From: a virus
Taxonomy: Monodnaviria; Loebvirae; Hofneiviricota; Faserviricetes; Tubulavirales; Inoviridae
Strand: one strand, 5' to 3'
IMG/VR virus record: IMGVR_UViG_2645727717_000001
Length of the DNA stretch: 7,037 bases
Made by a program: the position numbers and the translations under genes. The notes under the pieces were generated by a model. It saw only the letters and a list, made by a program, of their open reading frames with translations. It was not told the DNA's origin and did no database searches. Shown one piece after another: positions 1 through 7,037 of this stretch (position 1 is the stretch's first letter; each line of letters starts with the position of its first letter).

Positions 1-260
1 TTAACCTGGTAATATCTCTCTTGGGTGACTCTCCAAACATCCGCGAATATTCCCGACAGAAATGGGATAGCTTTCGTAACCGACAGCATAGGCTGCTGTG
101 GTGACATCGTAATGTTCATTCAGCATCTGTCGCCTGACTTCATTGAGACGTAGCCATTTCTGATACCAGAGTGGACTCATTCCCGCTTGATCCGTCCTTA
201 AATAAGTAACAGCACCCTCTGGTGTTTTCGTATGCAGTGTCTATGCGACAGACACTGCGC
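1..260 (-). pseudogene. AraC/XylS-family transcriptional regulator, C-terminal HTH region, decayed (at least two frameshifts); runs off the left edge of the window
   Basis: Minus-strand translation gives ...AGMSPLWYQKWLRLNEVRRQMLNEHYDVTTAAYAVGYES in one frame, then SHFCREYSRMFGESPKRDITRL in a second frame from ~pos 70; together these match the AraC-family signature (GxSPxxY...RL...VGYES.SxFSREYxRxFGxSP). A further frame break lies around 185-195 and a stop at 241-243. The second frame stays open past position 1. Confidence 0.65.
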
Positions 261-393
261 TCTTAGCATGGGGCAGGGAATAACCAGGCTATTTCTCCAT
301 GCACAGGCCAATTATGAAAGAGGAGAGGCTTAAGTTCTTGAACCCTGAACGAATAACGACTACCAGAAAAGCACTTCGCATCACTCAGACATG

Positions 394-421
394 ATTTAAC
401 ATAATATACATTATGCGCACC
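394..421 (-). other. dif: dif chromosome-dimer resolution site (XerC/XerD target), exact 28-mer
   Basis: Plus strand 394..421 is ATTTAACATAATATACATTATGCGCACC, the exact reverse complement of the canonical E. coli dif GGTGCGCATAA-TGTATA-TTATGTTAAAT. XerD arm = 394..404, central region = 405..410, XerC arm = 411..421. Confidence 0.9.
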
Positions 422-547
422 AATGGTAAGGATGGCAGAATCTGGCGGGAATCGTTGACACTTGGCGTCAACTGGCAACTATCGACAGTGATTCAAAATC
501 ATCCGTTTCTCCAGACGAATCAGAATCAAATGTCTGTCAGCAGTAAG

Positions 548-581
548 TGAACGGCCTGACCTCACCAATCAGGCCTGTTCA
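548..581. repeat. Hairpin / inverted repeat (12-bp stem with one bulge, 9-nt loop)
   Basis: TGAACGGCCTGA (548..559), loop CCTCACCAA (560..568), TCAGGCCTGTTCA (569..581). Core GGCCTGA/TCAGGCC is a perfect 7-bp pair. No T-run follows on either strand. Confidence 0.5.
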
Positions 582-719
582 TCCAGTTGCAGTTGGTAAA
601 TCTGTACCTGATACATGAAACCTTCCCCAGAAATACAGCCACAATGTCAGATAAGATGAACGCTGCCGCGCCGAATCAGCTATAACGCTCAAAATGAAAA
701 CTGTACGGCTTGGCCAACC

Positions 720-755
720 CCGGACAGCAACAAAACGAGTTTTGTCACTGACCGG
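720..755. repeat. 36-bp imperfect palindrome with symmetric mismatches
   Basis: CCGG-a-CAG-ca-ACAAAAC-ga-GTTTTGT-ca-CTG-a-CCGG. The arms pair except at symmetric 1-nt and 2-nt positions, which would give internal loops in a single-stranded fold. Confidence 0.45.
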
Positions 756-801
756 AGTTTACGATAACTTCGTAAGCATTAAATTTTAGCGGCTAAAAAG
801 T

Positions 802-1050
802 TCACCACCACCATGCAAACGGCTTGTTACTGACAGGAAATGCGATACCGTCAGCATCACGACCACGCAAGACCTGATTAAGAAGCTTTCTGACTTCACG
901 GCGCTCTGGCCGGGTCATCATCATATTGCGATACCAGGACGGTGATTTATCAAACCACCTGGAACAACTGGTAAAATGTGAACTAACACGACGGTAAGAC
1001 TTCATGCGACCACTGGGGAGTCGATCGCGCACCCTGCTTTTTACAGACAT
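802..1050 (-). CDS. Hypothetical small basic protein (82 aa), unknown function
   Basis: Only open frame >=60 aa in the region between gIV and dif. ATG at 1048..1050 with GAGG 8 nt upstream and a 21-bp palindrome just upstream. Arg-rich with a C-terminal WWW. No similarity recognised by eye; could be spurious. Confidence 0.3.
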   Translation of the reverse strand: MSVKSRVRDRLPSGRMKSYRRVSSHFTSCSRWFDKSPSWYRNMMMTRPERREVRKLLNQVLRGRDADGIAFPVSNKPFAWWW

Positions 1051-1059
1051 AAAAAACCT

Positions 1060-1080
1060 CTAAGTAATTGAATTACCTAG
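1060..1080. promoter_or_regulatory. Near-perfect 21-bp palindrome, candidate operator
   Basis: CTAAGTAATTgAATTACCTAG; core GTAATT/AATTAC is perfect around a single central base. Lies ~10 bp upstream of the ATG of the 802..1050 ORF on the minus strand. Confidence 0.4.
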
Positions 1081-1119
1081 AAGATGTCTTTCTGTTCATA
1101 TCCTGTCAGTTTTAAGGCC

Positions 1120-1200
1120 ATATAGAGGCTCCGTGGTGAAACGTAAAATCCGGCTCTTGATGTGGCCATACCGGGGCTTAACGCACCCGCCACGGCCCCA
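1120..1200 (-). other. GC-rich dyad-symmetry region immediately downstream of gIV (candidate terminator or packaging/origin hairpins)
   Basis: GGGGC...GCCCC and CCGTGG...CCACGG inverted repeats, two TGGCCA palindromes. Position corresponds to the start of the Ff intergenic region. No clear U-tract. Confidence 0.3.
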
Positions 1201-2466
1201 TCAAAGCGCGCGAATAATATGAGCGGTCAGCAGAACATACATAATGCGTTGCTCATTACTGTCAGCTTTACTCCTGAAAAGCCAGCCAATCACCGGAATT
1301 TTACTGATAAACGGTACAGAACGGTCAGCATTGCTGGATGATGAATCAATCAGCCCACCAAGTAAGAGCGTCTGGCCATCCTTAATCTGAACTGTTGTCT
1401 GTATCTGACGCTGGTTCGTAATAATATCAGATGCCTGGTCATCGTTGCTGATGGAATCAGCGCGGGTATCAATAGTAAGTACAAGCTGGCCGTTCCCCAT
1501 AACAACAGGCGTCACCTTCAGAGATACGCCAACATCATGACGTTCAATGGTCTGAAACGGATTATTTACCCCGGCAGATTCACCCGTAACTTTACCCGTG
1601 ATAAAGGGTACATTTTTACCAACAGAAATATAGCCTGTCTGACCAGACTGGGTAAGAATCCGGGGCGTTGAAATCACCTTAGACCGGGAGTTACTCTGCA
1701 CCGCACGCAGGGATACGGCCAGAACATTACCATCAAAAATGCCAAAAGAGCCGCCGGCAGTCGACAATGCGCTACCCAATGCTGAAGTATTAAAGCCCCC
1801 TGCTACTTTATGCCCGGATGCAGAACCGGCTGCAAACGACAAATCAACACCATCCGACAGACTGGTTTCAAACATCAGCGACTGAATCAAAACCTGATCG
1901 CGGGCAACATCCACTGAATTGATGAAATCGGAAAGGACGGGAAGCAGCTCATCAGGTGCGGAAACAATCAGGGAGTTATTGCCAGGATAATCCACAACAT
2001 TACCCCCGCCATTAGAATCCAGATAAATTTTAACCAGTTGCTGAACATCAGACGATCGAACTTTTGTCAGCTTAAAATTTCTGACAGTAAACTCCACTGG
2101 CGCTGGCTGATAAGATGGCTCAGACGGGAAAGAGTCATAAGACCGAATATCAGCATCATCAAGGTCTGACGCCATCTGTGATGGTAATTTTGACGGCAAA
2201 GAGACTACTGCAGGATTACCCGAAAGCATGACAAATCCGTTAGCATTCAGTACAGATTTGAAGAAACTATCAATATTTGTGGGATTAACATCAGCATTAA
2301 ATACCGTTACGGTTCCTTTAACATCAGGATTAACAATAACGGGCTTGCCAGTTTTTGATGAATACCACTGGACAAATGAGCGAACGGATGAATTATTCAG
2401 GTTAACAGTTTCAGCAGAAACGCAAAAAGAATAAGTGAATAAGATAGCAATGAAAAATAAACGCAT
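1201..2466 (-). CDS. IV: pIV outer-membrane secretin for phage extrusion (421 aa)
   Basis: Collinear similarity to M13 pIV from the signal peptide through the C-terminal ...YVLLTAHIIRAL (M13 ...YVLVKATIVRAL), including GTVTVF, GGSFGIFDGNVL, PFITGKVTGESAGVNNPFQTIER, QTLLLGGL. Start taken at the internal Met (MRLFFIAILF..., ATG 2464..2466) with AGGAG 9 nt upstream; the longer track ORF would overlap gI. Confidence 0.93.
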   Translation of the reverse strand: MRLFFIAILFTYSFCVSAETVNLNNSSVRSFVQWYSSKTGKPVIVNPDVKGTVTVFNADVNPTNIDSFFKSVLNANGFVMLSGNPAVVSLPSKLPSQMASDLDDADIRSYDSFPSEPSYQPAPVEFTVRNFKLTKVRSSDVQQLVKIYLDSNGGGNVVDYPGNNSLIVSAPDELLPVLSDFINSVDVARDQVLIQSLMFETSLSDGVDLSFAAGSASGHKVAGGFNTSALGSALSTAGGSFGIFDGNVLAVSLRAVQSNSRSKVISTPRILTQSGQTGYISVGKNVPFITGKVTGESAGVNNPFQTIERHDVGVSLKVTPVVMGNGQLVLTIDTRADSISNDDQASDIITNQRQIQTTVQIKDGQTLLLGGLIDSSSSNADRSVPFISKIPVIGWLFRSKADSNEQRIMYVLLTAHIIRAL

Positions 2467-2473
2467 AATAATA

Positions 2474-2848
2474 TTACTCCTGGCAGGTGATGTTTTGTAA
2501 ATAACGGCCTTTTCTGATAACAATTCGGCAGGCATCTTTAATATCAACAGAATAACCATCTTTAATTAAATCAAAATACTGGTACTTCATACCCTTAGCA
2601 TCAACAAACGTAACGGAAACATCAAAACCAAGTTGAGAGAAGGAATTAATTGATAGTCTCGGTAAATCGCTGGTACTGTCAGGAGTTACTGCCCTCACCT
2701 GTTCAGCATGAGCAGATTTAATAGCCGAAATCTCATCAGCATTCTTACCAGATTGTAGCCAGAAGCCAAGTCCAAGCCCCAATGCCAGAAATGAAAGCAT
2801 TAATATTAATCGGTTTGATTTTCGAAAGTAAATTTTCGTGAGGCGCAT
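2474..2848 (-). CDS. XI: pXI, in-frame internal start within gI (124 aa)
   Basis: Met241 of pI (MRLTKIYFRK...) aligns with the M13 pXI initiator Met241 (MKLTKIYLKK...) and is followed by a hydrophobic transmembrane stretch. ATG at 2846..2848. Confidence 0.5.
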   Translation of the reverse strand: MRLTKIYFRKSNRLILMLSFLALGLGLGFWLQSGKNADEISAIKSAHAEQVRAVTPDSTSDLPRLSINSFSQLGFDVSVTFVDAKGMKYQYFDLIKDGYSVDIKDACRIVIRKGRYLQNITCQE

Positions 2849-3568
2849 ATAATAATTAAACCCTTTGTTAACGGAAAACTGACCATGTGTAATAAATGGC
2901 GGCAAAAGCGAATAAGCACCATGCGGATAATTATCAGTAAAAGCCTGTTTTGTATTGTAGGCGGAATATAATGACTTTCCGGTATACATCCATTTATCAA
3001 CAGTTATTGAATTAACGTTGTCACCATATTTAACAATACCAAAGTGAACCTTTGGTAAAGAAAAACGAGCACCTGAAATTATATTCATGAAAGAACCAAT
3101 AAATGGGATGTTTAACTTATCTGAACGACGACAATAAACAACATGCTCCGCAAGCGCCAGCCGTGCTTGCTTGTCCATAATCGAAATATCCTGAATCAGA
3201 AAAATAATATCCCAGCCTAATTTACGGGCATGCAAAAACCAGTCAATAACTGGCTGTCTGTCTTTATCCCCCCACGAACGGGAATTAAACCAAGTCCCAC
3301 ATTCATCAAGAACCAGTAGACCATTACGTGATTCATCATAGGAAGTATTGCCTACACCAATAGCCAGCAGATCATTTAATGAAGGTTTGTCAGGGACACG
3401 AATCACGCGTGTTTTTTTCGCATAACGACCAACCATGGGCATATTATGTAGTTTAATATCTAGATTAGTGGCTACAGGACAGCCTTTAGCTAGTCTTTCC
3501 TGTATTCTGGCAACACTAACCAGTGTCTTACCTGAACCTAATTTCCCTGTTACGACATGAACCGTCAT
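2474..3568 (-). CDS. I: pI assembly ATPase (Zot-like), inner-membrane morphogenesis protein (364 aa)
   Basis: N-terminus MTVHVVTGKLGSGKTLVSV... closely matches M13 pI MAVYFVTGKLGSGKTLVSV.... Walker A GKLGSGKT at 3524..3547. Long identical runs (GLLVLDECGTWFN, QPVIDWFLHARKLGWDIIFL, DKQARLALAEHVVYCRR). RBS AAGGTGA upstream; the ATG abuts the gVI stop. Confidence 0.95.
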   Translation of the reverse strand: MTVHVVTGKLGSGKTLVSVARIQERLAKGCPVATNLDIKLHNMPMVGRYAKKTRVIRVPDKPSLNDLLAIGVGNTSYDESRNGLLVLDECGTWFNSRSWGDKDRQPVIDWFLHARKLGWDIIFLIQDISIMDKQARLALAEHVVYCRRSDKLNIPFIGSFMNIISGARFSLPKVHFGIVKYGDNVNSITVDKWMYTGKSLYSAYNTKQAFTDNYPHGAYSLLPPFITHGQFSVNKGFNYYMRLTKIYFRKSNRLILMLSFLALGLGLGFWLQSGKNADEISAIKSAHAEQVRAVTPDSTSDLPRLSINSFSQLGFDVSVTFVDAKGMKYQYFDLIKDGYSVDIKDACRIVIRKGRYLQNITCQE

Positions 3569-3910
3569 TCAAATCACCTTGTTTGCATAATCAAGGAATT
3601 TTTGTTTTAAATCGAAAACAAAAACGCTAATTCGAGTAATCATAATGACATTAACACAGGCCTGAAAATGGTCTGGTAAGACAGATGCAATTAAATGTGA
3701 AAAATCAGCAGGAAGGCCATTGTACATAACCTCAGCAAGATATTGCATTAAGAGAGTGACAGTTGTTGTAATTAATGCAACTAATGCTACAGCTATCAAT
3801 CCTGTTTTAGTCGCAAGGCGTGCGAGGAAGCTTGCCACATAGCCAATAAATAAAGGAACAAGCCCAATAAGAAAACGCAATAGTGCAGGAATACCTAATA
3901 ATAAAGGCAT
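3569..3910 (-). CDS. VI: pVI minor coat protein (113 aa)
   Basis: MPLLLGIPALLRFLIGL... vs M13 pVI MPVLLGIPLLLRFLGFL...; C-terminal FVFDLKQK vs FIFDVKQK. The ATG overlaps the gIII stop (TAATG). Confidence 0.9.
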   Translation of the reverse strand: MPLLLGIPALLRFLIGLVPLFIGYVASFLARLATKTGLIAVALVALITTTVTLLMQYLAEVMYNGLPADFSHLIASVLPDHFQACVNVIMITRISVFVFDLKQKFLDYANKVI

Positions 3911-5153
3911 TACTCACCTCCTTTACGAAGTAATGAGGTTAAAGACGTAAATACATACCAGAAGGTAAGGCAATAAAAAATCCATGAAAGCGCATCTTTG
4001 ATAGTAAGTAATTTATCGCATTCAATATCAATCTGATAAATTTCACCGGGGAAAATAACAAGTTCAGAACAACCATTACCATTAGGTAAACTAGGGAGCA
4101 TAGCACCTTTATTCAGGAATGCTTCCCATAAAGCACCATGAGAATCTTTAGCTATTCCTAATTCGGATTCAGCCAATGTTGAAGCACTGTCTAATTCGGA
4201 ATCCCCTTTCCCATAACGAGAATCACCGCCAGAAGGATCAGCAAAACGTCCGGCTCCGCGAGTAAGGTTATTTATAGCGTCACCAAGACGATTTATATTA
4301 TTTTTAGTCTGTTCATCAGCCGATTTTTTATCATCAGATGAGGTGTCTTTTTCTGTTAACTTATCATGAATCTCACTGGCCATTTTAGGTGAAGCACCTT
4401 CAATAGCTGACTGAATATCTCCTTTGGTAATACTTGAGCCATTACCACCTGAGTTACCGCCACCTGAGTTACCACCGCCTGTATCACCTCCTCCAGTATC
4501 ACCACCCCCCGTATCCCCGCCTCCAGTATCCCCACCATCGCCAGCAGGAGAAGAAGGCTTATCTGAAGGATCGGCTACGGTTCCGGTAGGCTTCCATGTC
4601 GCCGCACAAACAGTGCCATCACCCTGGCAAACAATGACGCCAGTGGCCTCATATTCACAACCGTTATAATAAATATAACGATCACCATCATAAGATAGAC
4701 ATTATTAAATACACCTTCTTCAGGAGGTTTAGCTTCACAAATTTCTTCAGGTGTAGGCTCGGAGGGTTTTTCATCAGGAATAGAACGCTGAATATCACCG
4801 ATAATATAAGCGGTTAAATTCCAGTATTTATCTTTCTGGCCCGGAGAGTCGCTGTAGGTACAAGCGTCAGAAAACACAAGACGGAATTCAGAGTTAGGCC
4901 ATACTCCCTCATAAGTTGGTTTAACCTGAGTAAAAACACCCTGAGCACTGTCTTTAGCCCCCTGACAGGCAGAAGCCTGCATAGCTGCATCAATATAATA
5001 AACAGTTTGTTTAGTGCCATCTTGGTTGGTTATTTGCTTACTTTCAGAATAGGCAGAGCTTTGAAAAGTAGATTTAGTAATGCTTTCCCATGAATCAGCA
5101 TGTGAAAAAGAAGAAATAAGAATAGCGGAAATAATTAATATTTTCCTTTTCAT
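3910..5153 (-). pseudogene. III: pIII adsorption / minor coat protein, split across two frames by an apparent 1-nt deletion near 4698
   Basis: Frame A (5153 -> stop 4575): signal peptide MKRKILIISAILISSFSHA, ~150-aa N-terminal domain, Pro/Glu-rich linker, ...[16 protein letters not shown], then nonsense. Frame B (open 4701 -> 3913): [39 protein letters not shown] (cf. M13 N1 DRYANYEGCLWNATGVVVCTGDETQCYGTWVPIG), Gly-rich linker, C-terminal domain ending ...LPSLP...IDCDKL...FWYVFTSL. Span is 1244 nt, i.e. 3n+2. Confidence 0.8.
4444..4533 (-). repeat. Six imperfect 15-bp tandem repeats encoding the pIII Gly-rich linker
   Basis: Minus strand GGGGATACTGGAGGC / GGGGATACGGGGGGT / GGTGATACTGGAGGA / GGTGATACAGGCGGT / GGTAACTCAGGTGGC / GGTAACTCAGGTGGT, encoding (GGDTG)x4 then (GGNSG)x2. 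Confidence 0.8.
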
Positions 5154-5160
5154 AATAACC

Positions 5161-5190
5161 CGCTTTAATAAAGGGGCAACGAGTGCCCCT
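5161..5190 (-). terminator. Rho-independent terminator between gVIII and gIII
   Basis: Stem AGGGGCA (5172..5178) / TGCCCCT (5184..5190) with 5-nt loop; on the transcribed minus strand it is followed by TTTATT. Same position as the central terminator of Ff phages. Confidence 0.6.
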
Positions 5191-5199
5191 GAGTGAATT

Positions 5200-5442
5200 T
5201 TAAACTGCTTTCGAAGAGAACTTTTTAAACAAACGAATGGCAAGACCCGCACCAACGACAGCGACAACAGCAGGCCATACTTTTGCAATAAGATCGTTTG
5301 CCTGAGTCAGCAGTGAATCCATTGCCTGACCTGCATAGTCAGTGCTACCCGTTGCGCCATCAGCAGCAAAACAACTTGCAGAAACAAAAAGTGCGGTTGA
5401 AGCCACAGCAATTTTAGATTTAATAACAGAAATGACTTTCAT
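5200..5442 (-). CDS. VIII: pVIII major coat protein precursor (80 aa)
   Basis: Signal peptide MKVISVIKSKIAVASTALFVSASCFA, acidic mature N-terminus ADGATG..., hydrophobic core, basic C-terminus LFKKFSSKAV (M13: LFKKFTSKAS). RBS GGAG 9 nt upstream. Confidence 0.93.
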   Translation of the reverse strand: MKVISVIKSKIAVASTALFVSASCFAADGATGSTDYAGQAMDSLLTQANDLIAKVWPAVVAVVGAGLAIRLFKKFSSKAV

Positions 5443-5471
5443 ATAAATAACTCCATTTAAGTTAGGTTTTA

Positions 5472-5567
5472 TTACATTAATCGGTCAGATAATGTTTTAA
5501 ACGAACCGACCGCATAGAAAAGGGCAAATCCTAAGGTATAAGCCCCGAAGAAATACACAATATACAT
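5472..5567 (-). CDS. IX: pIX minor coat protein (31 aa)
   Basis: Hand-translated MYIVYFFGAYTLGFALFYAVGSFKTLSDRLM; resembles M13 pIX (MSVLVYSFASFVLGW...TRLM...). ATG overlaps the gVII stop (TAATG). Below the ORF-track length cutoff. Confidence 0.7.
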   Translation of the reverse strand: MYIVYFFGAYTLGFALFYAVGSFKTLSDRLM

Positions 5568-5653
5568 TAACGAATGACACCTGCGGTAATAGCACCAAGA
5601 CCAAAAGAAATAACAATGCCGGATGCTATTAATATTTGAATAACATCATCCAT
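5567..5653 (-). CDS. VII: pVII minor coat protein (28 aa)
   Basis: Hand-translated MDDVIQILIASGIVISFGLGAITAGVIR; resembles M13 pVII C-terminal half (...QISVVLCFALGIIAGGQR). ATG is 2 nt after the gV-analog stop; AAAGG upstream. Confidence 0.65.
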   Translation of the reverse strand: MDDVIQILIASGIVISFGLGAITAGVIR

Positions 5654-5655
5654 AA

Positions 5656-5973
5656 TTAACCTTTTATTTCAGTGATCCCACCATCTGATGAAATATTATA
5701 AGTCACACCTTCTCTACCCTCCATTGACCAGACACGAACATATACAGGGATTTGAACTAATTTCCCCGTAAAACTATTGGCTTGATTCATGACTCCGGCG
5801 TTCACAAGGGACTGTGATACACGAATAATTATTTGGTCTTGCTTAGTACCGCCAAAACCATCAGGGATCTCTAAACCGATACCAATTTCATTGTAATAGC
5901 CCTGACCATTGACTTTATTACGCTGACGAGCACCAAGCATTTTACCTTTTACAAAAAGACCATAATTAGACAT
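5656..5973 (-). CDS. Putative ssDNA-binding protein, gV positional analog (105 aa); no resemblance to Ff pV
   Basis: Sits between the replication initiator and gVII exactly where gV lies in Ff. AAGGAG RBS 7 nt upstream of the ATG. Function assigned by position only. Confidence 0.5.
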   Translation of the reverse strand: MSNYGLFVKGKMLGARQRNKVNGQGYYNEIGIGLEIPDGFGGTKQDQIIIRVSQSLVNAGVMNQANSFTGKLVQIPVYVRVWSMEGREGVTYNISSDGGITEIKG

Positions 5974-5984
5974 ATCACGCTCCT

Positions 5985-7037
5985 TTAATGCCAGTTACTG
6001 GCATGTGAAATACGGTTGTAATCAAAAATAAAACCTTTCTCATAAACCCATGTAGGGATTTGGGCTGGTTTAGCTTCAAGTGTTCTTACTAATGGAACAA
6101 CATTATTTGAATCAGGGGATTCACAATAAAAATTAATATCTATCCCGAAAGACAATAATTCTTTTCGGTGCCTGTAAAATGTTGGCTTTGGAAGCATTTC
6201 TTTCATGTTTGCGCCCTGCTTCCACAGTAAATATGTTGATTGTATTTTTCTCGGCAGTTTAACTATTTTTTCATCGGTCAAAATGGCATTTTGATTCATT
6301 TCTATTCTCCCTACATATTCAGAGAATAATTTGTTTGGAGTATCGATATTCCAGTTACTGCCAAGCGTAAGGTTTAAGTCAATTAATTCTGTTGTTCTTA
6401 GCGTCAATTCAATTCGTAATTTATCTTTAGACCAGTCAAGTAAGCCAGCTTTAACAAACTCTTCTGCTATCTGGTGTCCTTTTTTACCAGAAATATGCTC
6501 ATCATATTTTGAATAAAATTTCAGGCTCCACCGCCGGGAGTTTTTCCCTAAGTAAACAGTTCCACCTTTACCACAGGCGCGACCATGGCGAGTTTTAGCC
6601 TTGAATTCTGCGGCATATAGCCATGCGCGGACATTTTCCAGCGTTGATAATGAATACATGTAGTTAATATCAATGCGTGAGATCTTAAATTGCCCTGCCA
6701 TTACCTGACGATAGGATGGTAGATCATGAGGAATATGAAGTAATGCCAATATTCTTGCGTAAGCGGTTAATACCAGCCCCTGCAAATCATCGGAGCCAAT
6801 AACAGAATGCCCCTGAAGAAATTTTGACGGATTTCCGTCAATATAAAGATGAGTTGCCCGGCCCTCCCCGTCTGATCCAACAGATCGTACTTTCATTGTG
6901 GATTCGTATGAACCGCGAACGGTCAACCGCTTTACTGTTTCCCACTCCACTGCACCGTCAGCATCAACGCTGACGACACTACCGGCCGGTAACGGTCGGT
7001 GTGTGCAAGGAAGAATTCCGGTAAACCAGTCGATCAT
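5985..7037 (-). CDS. II: Rolling-circle replication initiator, gII equivalent (350 aa), likely of the RstA / Phage_CRI type rather than Ff pII
   Basis: Large ORF upstream of the gV analog beginning MIDWFTGILP...; no collinear similarity to M13 pII beyond MID. The ATG is the last 3 nt of the window, so an upstream extension cannot be excluded. Family assignment is from memory of N-terminal motifs. Confidence 0.75.
   Translation of the reverse strand: MIDWFTGILPCTHRPLPAGSVVSVDADGAVEWETVKRLTVRGSYESTMKVRSVGSDGEGRATHLYIDGNPSKFLQGHSVIGSDDLQGLVLTAYARILALLHIPHDLPSYRQVMAGQFKISRIDINYMYSLSTLENVRAWLYAAEFKAKTRHGRACGKGGTVYLGKNSRRWSLKFYSKYDEHISGKKGHQIAEEFVKAGLLDWSKDKLRIELTLRTTELIDLNLTLGSNWNIDTPNKLFSEYVGRIEMNQNAILTDEKIVKLPRKIQSTYLLWKQGANMKEMLPKPTFYRHRKELLSFGIDINFYCESPDSNNVVPLVRTLEAKPAQIPTWVYEKGFIFDYNRISHASNWH

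Follow-up and report, generated by a model that had tools for sequence, protein, structure and literature searches.

Does the filamentous prophage held in record IMGVR_UViG_2645727717_000001 still possess a working attachment gene? In the 7,037-bp stretch of DNA analyzed here (hereafter the window), gene III (gIII), which encodes the attachment protein pIII, is divided between two reading frames. The sequence-only reading of this locus had offered two alternatives, namely that the prophage may be defective or that the interruption is an indel sequencing error. Both were examined by comparing the window with related loci in public genomes, together with the possibilities that the break is bypassed during expression or that the shortened product has been kept for a function of its own.

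The prophage and its integration site

The window carries its phage genes on the minus strand in the order gII, gV, gVII, gIX, gVIII, gIII, gVI, gI and gIV (Table 1). Gene III is thus located between gene VIII, encoding the major coat protein, and gene VI, as indicated by the ORF order in the window and by the RefSeq annotation of a near-identical record (see below), and the same order is found in IKe. Gene III and its neighbours share 69-71% nucleotide identity with phages IKe and I2-2 and with the Erwinia PEar phages. The first attribution of the gene, to gIII of an IKe/I2-2-like filamentous prophage, therefore agrees with both the domain matches and the matches to relatives.

A full E. coli dif site adjoins the prophage and marks its junction with the chromosome (Table 1). 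In related loci, the prophage lies between hipBA and a ydeQRST-type fimbrial cluster, flanks typical of the E. coli terminus region. In GCA_977064715.1 the prophage forms a two-copy tandem array with a unit of 9853 bp, and a second prophage copy is also present in NZ_CP144928.1. The tandem unit measures 9.08 kb in the strain with an intact gIII and 9.85 kb where an IS1 insertion is present.

These properties are shared with the UPphi viruses (UPphi901 and relatives), which are integrated at dif in tandem copies, carry a structural module nearest to that of I2-2/IKe with the core order II-V-VII-IX-VIII-III-VI-I-IV, and bear accessory ORFs beside dif (PMC7307601). The window has ~84% nucleotide identity with the ECONIH2 prophage discussed in the same study. 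It differs from the UPphi901 type in its pIII, which is 81% identical and whose linker is built of (GGGDT)x4 and GGGNS x2 repeats instead of GGGES, and its tandem unit is longer than the 7.56-kb query used in that work (Shapiro & Putonti 2020; PMC7307601). CTXphi, Ypfphi and CUSphi also integrate at dif as tandem arrays, but their structural genes, including gIII, are unrelated or distant (PMC7307601); a further trait of the UPphi viruses is an identity above 85% of their genes II and V to the Ypfphi counterparts, but in the phage collection no match to Ypfphi was obtained, and gII matched I2-2 weakly. Given its position at E. coli dif, its I2-2/IKe-like structural genes and its chromosomal flanks, the element is assigned to the UPphi viruses as an IKe/I2-2-like filamentous prophage. 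Its integration was presumably mediated by XerCD.

Gene III is divided between two reading frames

Gene III spans positions 5153 to 3910 of the minus strand, or 1244 nt, a length of the form 3n+2. From the ATG at 5153, the first frame begins with MKRK and remains in frame up to GVFNNVY, after which it becomes nonsense and ends at a TAG (4577-4575). The -1 frame is closed by TAA TAA at 4707-4702, is open from 4701, and encodes the remainder of pIII to its C-terminus at 3910. Both frames are consequently open over 124 nt (4578 to 4701). Translation bore out this description, which had been given from the letters of the window alone; as a fixed property of the sequence, the split calls for no test against chance.

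As shown in Table 1, the product of the first frame has 192 amino acids. Cleavage after MKRKILIISAILISSFSHA would give a mature product starting with DSWES. The pilus-binding domain of IKe/I2-2-type G3P was recognized on the 192-aa product itself, and a profile search of the same product gave no match to PF05357. The 39 out-of-frame residues at its end are unrelated to any pIII. A whole TolA-binding domain, with its four cysteines on one polypeptide, is encoded solely by the restored or intact allele. Although conserved in sequence, the Gly-rich linker and hydrophobic C-terminal anchor lie in the -1 frame and not in the ORF that bears the signal peptide. In this downstream frame there is no ATG, GTG or TTG ahead of the ATG at 4383, and gene callers report only a 157-aa ORF (4383 to 3910) for the 3' part.

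The order of the encoded parts, i.e. signal peptide, pilus-binding domain, TolA-binding domain, Gly-rich linker and C-terminal anchor, is that of the G3P proteins of IKe and I2-2 (Lineavirus; PDB 4eo0 and 4eo1). Identity reaches 56% across the first 205 residues, and the motif EEICEAKPP..GVFNNV is conserved. However, IKe and I2-2 are non-integrating phages in which gene III is a single ORF of 434 aa, whereas here the ORF is split and resides in a dif-integrated prophage.

Table 1. Location of the main features of the window and of its gene III.
Feature	Position	Strand	Remarks
Host chromosomal flank	1-393		Contains an AraC-family pseudogene
E. coli dif site	394..421	-	28/28 match; prophage/chromosome junction; tandem-copy homology begins at 407
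gII	7037..5985	-	Extends past the window end
Gene III, 5' reading frame	4575..5153	-	192-aa product: signal peptide, pilus-binding domain, linker, first 24 residues of the TolA-binding domain, 39 out-of-frame residues, TAG; same 192-aa protein in public assemblies
Putative Sec signal peptide, 19 aa (MKRKILIISAILISSFSHA)	5097..5153	-	Alignable to the 19-aa signal peptide annotated in IKe gIII
Pilus-binding domain, residues 20-128	4770..5096	-	PF21443, E=2e-25 (residues 22-125); PDB 4eo0 (IKe G3P), E=1e-27 (residues 20-128); intact in the window
TolA-binding domain, residues 130-195 of the intact protein	4570..4766	-	PF05357, E=8e-8 (135-176); PDB 4eo1 (IKe), E=1e-25 (130-195); fd/M13 N1 entries from residue 137
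Cysteines of the TolA-binding domain	Residues 139, 166, 176 and 183		Numbering of the intact protein
1-nt deletion site	4694..4695	-	Coding strand GTC TAT|CT TAT; intact GTC TAT TCT TAT; one T of a TT pair lost
Out-of-frame tail, 39 codons	4578..4694	-	Strongly hydrophobic; Kyte-Doolittle 19-residue mean up to 2.5
Gene III, 3' part, -1 frame	3910..4701	-	Remaining TolA-binding domain, Gly-rich repeats, C-terminal domain with membrane anchor
Gly-rich linker repeats, (GGGDT)x4 and GGGNS x2	4432..4542	-	Residues 205-241 of the intact protein

Identification of the missing base

When the whole window was compared by megablast with complete E. coli genomes, one near-identical record was found, NZ_CP144928.1 (strain SCPM-O-B-12142). 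The matching region has 7038 bases against the 7037 of the window and bears a RefSeq-annotated intact attachment protein, WP_053902684.1, encoded by 1245 nt (414 aa plus the stop). Base by base, the two sequences show three differences only. Two are SNPs, at 477 and at 5270, and the third is a base that NZ_CP144928.1 has in addition, so that the 1-nt deletion is the sole indel in 7 kb. The expectation that a gene of 1244 nt lacks a single base, and that its intact form is one continuous ORF of ~414 aa, was therefore confirmed.

On the plus strand, the single A at 4695 of the window corresponds to AA in NZ_CP144928.1. The coding strand of the intact allele reads AAT AAT GTC TAT TCT TAT GAT GGT (N N V Y S Y D G), and that of the window continues from GTC as TAT CTT ATG ATG G. 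The deletion affects codons 153-154, the restored peptide being NNVYSYDGD, and it falls in a pair of Ts instead of a homopolymer run. The previous proposal of one lost base was right as to its number but not as to its identity and position: a C had been supposed to be missing at ~4698, and the alignment with NZ_CP144928.1 and the relatives points to a T at 4694/4695. The repair GTC-CTATC proposed with it (V-L-S-Y-D, giving NNVLSYDGD) was discarded for one with a further T behind TAT, as in the intact record (GTC-TAT-TCT, V-Y-S-Y-D).

The last native residues are V152 and Y153. According to the alignment with 4eo1 and the positions of the cysteines, the break lies 24 residues into the TolA-binding domain as crystallized for IKe, past the first cysteine (C139). 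It is thus inside this domain, and not between the Pro-rich linker and the domain as had been thought. Nine relatives, ranging from ~100% to ~69% nucleotide identity to the window, were compared at the site (SCPM-O-B-12142, LSN03-016011/A, A20, 16843, F11, Combat2C1, IKe, I2-2 and PEar1). All nine read through it in one frame, including IKe and I2-2, whose gIII the sequence-only reading had named for alignment. Since every relative keeps a single frame across the site, the deletion is the derived state.

Distribution of the frameshift allele

In the gene-position index, 108 blocks of the collection list the truncated 192-aa protein in its exact form. It was found on 82 contigs from sources that include NCBI, ENA and Logan, a figure that counts contigs and not strains or sequence types; CTS82439.1, CTT59010.1 and CTU66334.1 are examples of its protein records. 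For the exact intact parent protein the count was 38 contigs, with NCBI, ENA and Logan again among the sources. Named carriers of the deletion are GCA_977064715.1 (on a 4.87-Mb contig), GCA_001285805.1 and GCA_017117365.1, along with the Logan re-assemblies SRR29270441, SRR28801437 and SRR5616885. A further IMG/VR record, UViG_2695420487_000001, is 100% identical to the window over 407-7037, including the otherwise private A at 477.

In all the carriers inspected the same T is missing (five further deletion loci were compared at the site). The carriers examined have the same chromosomal flank and near-identical sequences, differing among themselves by up to three further SNPs. All of them have a G at 5270, which makes residue 58 of pVIII an Ala, where the intact strain has an A (Val). 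In addition, a 768-bp IS1 occurs in the accessory region of the three carrier loci that reach that far (L006, L007 and L008), and the contig of another (L009) apparently starts just past it; this IS1 is absent from the intact strain. In GCA_977064715.1, both tandem copies bear the deletion and the same IS1 insertion.

None of 5,426 complete RefSeq E. coli genomes has the deletion, and the allele is therefore confined to a lineage which that set does not sample. An exact 31-mer spanning the deletion had one match in IMG/VR and none in the JGI metagenomes or among the GTDB species representatives. A 40-aa out-of-frame stretch yielded no candidates among 5.8 billion protein cluster representatives, a result of no weight, since truncated alleles do not act as representatives in that set.

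Other gene III lesions among the relatives

The intact gIII was also searched against complete E. coli genomes and the lengths of the matches were compared. About 51 of the 55 gIII homologues differ in length from the query by multiples of three only. The exceptions bear lesions that are unrelated to one another. In A20, gIII is interrupted by an IS21-family insertion, and gI and gVI are truncated too. In ERP001 the gene is reduced to its first 21%, and in PEC422 the match covers its first 93% only. The F11 prophage (NZ_CP076123.1) is a parallel case, as a UPphi-type element with a 1-nt deletion in the attachment gene (annotated "frameshifted" by PGAP) and intact neighbours. It differs from the present case in that the change is a C6 to C5 contraction at about codon 201, past the TolA-binding domain, and is known from one genome only, where it may be a homopolymer error.

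A UPphi prophage in GCA_001519645 was previously described with an early stop in gene III, and the same argument for loss of pIII was made there (PMC7307601); none of our carrier assemblies was found in the supplements of that study. The scatter of these lesions is as expected of ordinary prophage decay. A pseudogenized attachment gene in this group of dif-integrated filamentous prophages is thus already known in kind, and with the present allele the gIII lesions on record for UPphi-type elements gain another, well-documented example.

Sequencing error, recoding or a retained function?

That the missing base is an indel introduced by sequencing or assembly, the real gene being intact, might be supposed from the fact that single-base indels are the commonest assembly error, and from the intact gene of the nearest complete RefSeq genome and the lack of the deletion in that whole genome set. 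However, the identical truncated protein recurs in assemblies from different submitters and years as well as in Logan re-assemblies of raw runs, and the deletion is present in both tandem copies on a single 4.87-Mb contig. The carriers also share a linked SNP (G at 5270) and an IS1 insertion, both missing from the intact strain. The TT site is no homopolymer run, and the presence of the intact allele on 38 contigs of the same source types speaks against a systematic miscall there. A one-off or systematic error is therefore very unlikely. The suggestion of a sequencing error is accordingly left without support by carriers from NCBI, ENA, Logan and IMG/VR, and that of a defective prophage is strengthened by the same truncated product on so many contigs, in both tandem copies and in carriers with differing SNPs. 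Programmed recoding is scarcely credible either. In this reading, ribosomes shifting by -1, or slippage during transcription, within the overlap would yield some full-length pIII and keep the phage functional. It is true that both frames are open for 124 nt, and that a -1 shift in roughly the first 10 nt of this zone would restore a near-native protein. Rebuilding the conserved segment would in fact require a shift within ~10 nt of 4701, where the sequence is AAT GTC TAT CTT ATG. Yet neither a canonical (X XXY YYZ) nor a relaxed slippery heptamer occurs in the overlap zone (4578-4701), homopolymers there stay below five bases, and the sole structure returned by a generic scan is a weak 5-bp hairpin at 4629-4614. 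Moreover, the two-frame arrangement is not conserved, every relative, even the near-identical one, having a single continuous ORF, and it was born of a recent 1-nt deletion. Programmed frameshifting and slippage were rejected on these grounds. Separate expression of the 3' part from the ATG at 4383 was rejected as well, as the resulting 157-aa fragment has no signal peptide and would be unlikely to insert correctly. From the lack of recoding signals, the absence of the arrangement in relatives, the lack of a start before 4383 and the missing signal peptide of the 157-aa fragment, we conclude that full-length pIII would not be made.

It may also be asked whether the truncated allele has been domesticated. 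After secretion, its pilus-binding domain might become anchored to the inner membrane through the hydrophobic tail and there disturb the function of a conjugative pilus or superinfection by related phages. In favour of this reading, the truncated product retains a complete pilus-binding domain and ends in a strongly hydrophobic out-of-frame tail (19-residue Kyte-Doolittle mean of 2.5), all the other phage genes are still intact, and the truncated allele has been sampled more often than its exact intact parent. Furthermore, in the diverged relative P0010 an independent 1-nt deletion ~10 codons upstream leads to the same frame and the same tail, though P0010 is known from a single Logan contig. 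On the other hand, the shared flank and near-identity of the carriers mean that clonal hitch-hiking accounts for the frequency of the allele, and the gIII lesions of the relatives are unrelated in position and in kind. In Ff phages, pIII fragments exclude superinfecting phage by means of the TolA-binding domain, the very part that is destroyed here. Such a domestication is thus improbable. If it were true, the allele would be kept for protection of the lineage from related pilus-specific phages or for modulation of conjugation, and P0010 would be a case of parallel evolution. The excess of contigs with the frameshift allele (82 vs 38) could reflect the sampling of a successful clone or some advantage.

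Predicted consequences for the prophage

Taken together, the comparisons make it very probable that gene III of this prophage has been inactivated by a genuine, vertically inherited 1-bp deletion, and that the window carries a clonally inherited loss-of-function allele. Once a T is lost from TAT-TCT (codons 153-154), ribosomes starting at the usual ATG would make a 192-aa pre-protein in which the signal peptide and the entire pilus-binding domain are followed by the first 24 residues of the TolA-binding domain and 39 hydrophobic out-of-frame residues. What remains of the TolA-binding domain would no longer be part of the secreted protein, nor would the Gly-rich linker or the C-terminal domain.

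In phage f1, the N-domains of pIII mediate binding to the pilus and to TolA, while its C domain joins the tip with pVI and is required to end assembly and release the filament (PMC10175506). Loss of pIII lowers the infectivity of f1 by some six orders of magnitude, and fragments of the C domain no longer than 83 residues fail to terminate assembly (PMC10175506). By analogy with this Ff protein, the earlier statement that pIII is needed for infection and for virion release would hold here, and the prophage alone is most likely unable to make released, infectious particles.

The other phage genes are intact and differ from those of the intact strain by two SNPs only. As these genes are otherwise unchanged, replication and tandem maintenance of the element may continue. 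The prophage would then be carried along passively in a clonal E. coli lineage and spread only with a helper supplying pIII, which could mobilise it; a helper-dependent or other retained role may also exist. In the carrier lineage, the element should be annotated as a prophage with a gIII pseudogene and not as a self-transmitting phage.

The T deletion at 4694/4695, the IS1 insertion and the SNP giving A58 in pVIII together provide a marker of the lineage. Since the two alleles differ by so few bases (one base in gIII and two SNPs elsewhere in 7 kb), the intact sister allele can serve as a natural control for the effects of the prophage on its hosts.

Lesions and linked polymorphisms of the frameshift lineage

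Loci that carry the window's gIII deletion and extend into the accessory region upstream of gII (L006, L007 and L008) also contain a 768-bp IS1. This element is flanked by an 8-bp target duplication and separates the 369-aa accessory ORF from the 140-aa one. It is missing from strain SCPM-O-B-12142, in which gIII is intact. The frameshift lineage thus has two lesions, the gIII deletion and the IS1 insertion. Both tandem copies in GCA_977064715.1 contain IS1. The presence of both lesions in both copies indicates that the array was formed, or homogenised, later than the gIII deletion and the IS1 insertion.

In L008 (positions 1-4900; GCA_001285805.1, contig CYBP01000067.1), the sequence next to the prophage IS1 is the aldA-gapC-cybB region, in place of hipBA and the 369-aa accessory gene. 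Either IS1 mediated a rearrangement or deletion near the terminus, or the assembler passed from one locus to another through a repeated IS1.

The gIII deletion is also linked to a SNP that changes a residue of the major coat protein. At window position 5270, within codon 58 of gVIII, G (Ala58) occurs in every frameshift carrier and A (Val58) in the intact-gIII strain; the residue lies within the hydrophobic segment of pVIII. At position 477, the window has A, whereas L004 and L006-L010 have T. This A is common only to the window and to the IMG/VR record UViG_2695420487_000001, which is 100% identical to the window over 407-7037. The probable source of the window is the genome behind that record or one very closely related to it.

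Gene III in related prophages

Other lesions of gene III, each independent, are present in the relatives P0010 (a diverged one), F11, A20 and ERP001 (see table). Among complete E. coli genomes, gIII length ranges from -42 to +141 nt, in steps that are always multiples of three except in F11. The Gly-rich linker of gIII corresponds to the region that PMC7307601 describes as hypervariable; the repeats of the UPphi901 type are GGGES/GGGSS, in contrast to the GGGDT and GGGNS repeats of the window.

The out-of-frame tail of the truncated gIII product has a hydrophobicity matching that of a transmembrane helix (Kyte-Doolittle mean of 2.5). This hydrophobicity probably arose by chance, from a Tyr/Gly/Asp-rich segment being read one base out of frame, but the tail would act as a membrane anchor for the truncated product.

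Features of the prophage, its relatives and the host junction
Feature	Sequence	Position	Strand	Remarks
31-aa ORF	window	5472-5567	-	MYIVYFFGAYTLGFALFYAVGSFKTLSDRLM; gene IX position, between gVII and gVIII
82-aa ORF	window	802-1050	-	between gIV and dif; hypothetical protein WP_071792182.1
Out-of-frame tail of gIII	window	4578-4694	-	39 residues
Gly-rich linker of gIII	window	4432-4542	-	(GGGDT)x4 + GGGNS x2
E. coli dif	window	394-421	-	perfect 28 bp; prophage/chromosome boundary
Host flank	window	1-393
AraC-family (HTH_18) pseudogene	window	~1-186		frameshifted; inside host flank
IS1	L006	4139-4906, 13992-14759		768 bp; outside window
P0010 gene III lesion	Logan, one contig			earlier 1-nt deletion, enters same frame
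F11 gene III lesion	L013	301-1580		C6 to C5 at ~codon 201
A20 gene III lesion	L011	3937-7309		IS21-family insertion in gene III
ERP001 gene III lesion	NZ_CP063214.1			most of gene III lost

Small ORFs and the dif junction

RefSeq records for this prophage do not annotate the 31-aa ORF; the only gene they give there is gVII ("tail virion protein G7P-2"). The 82-aa ORF is found in every prophage copy and belongs to the uncharacterised accessory genes that UPphi prophages typically carry; no Pfam match is on record for its product. At the dif boundary, homology between the window and the next tandem copy begins at position 407.
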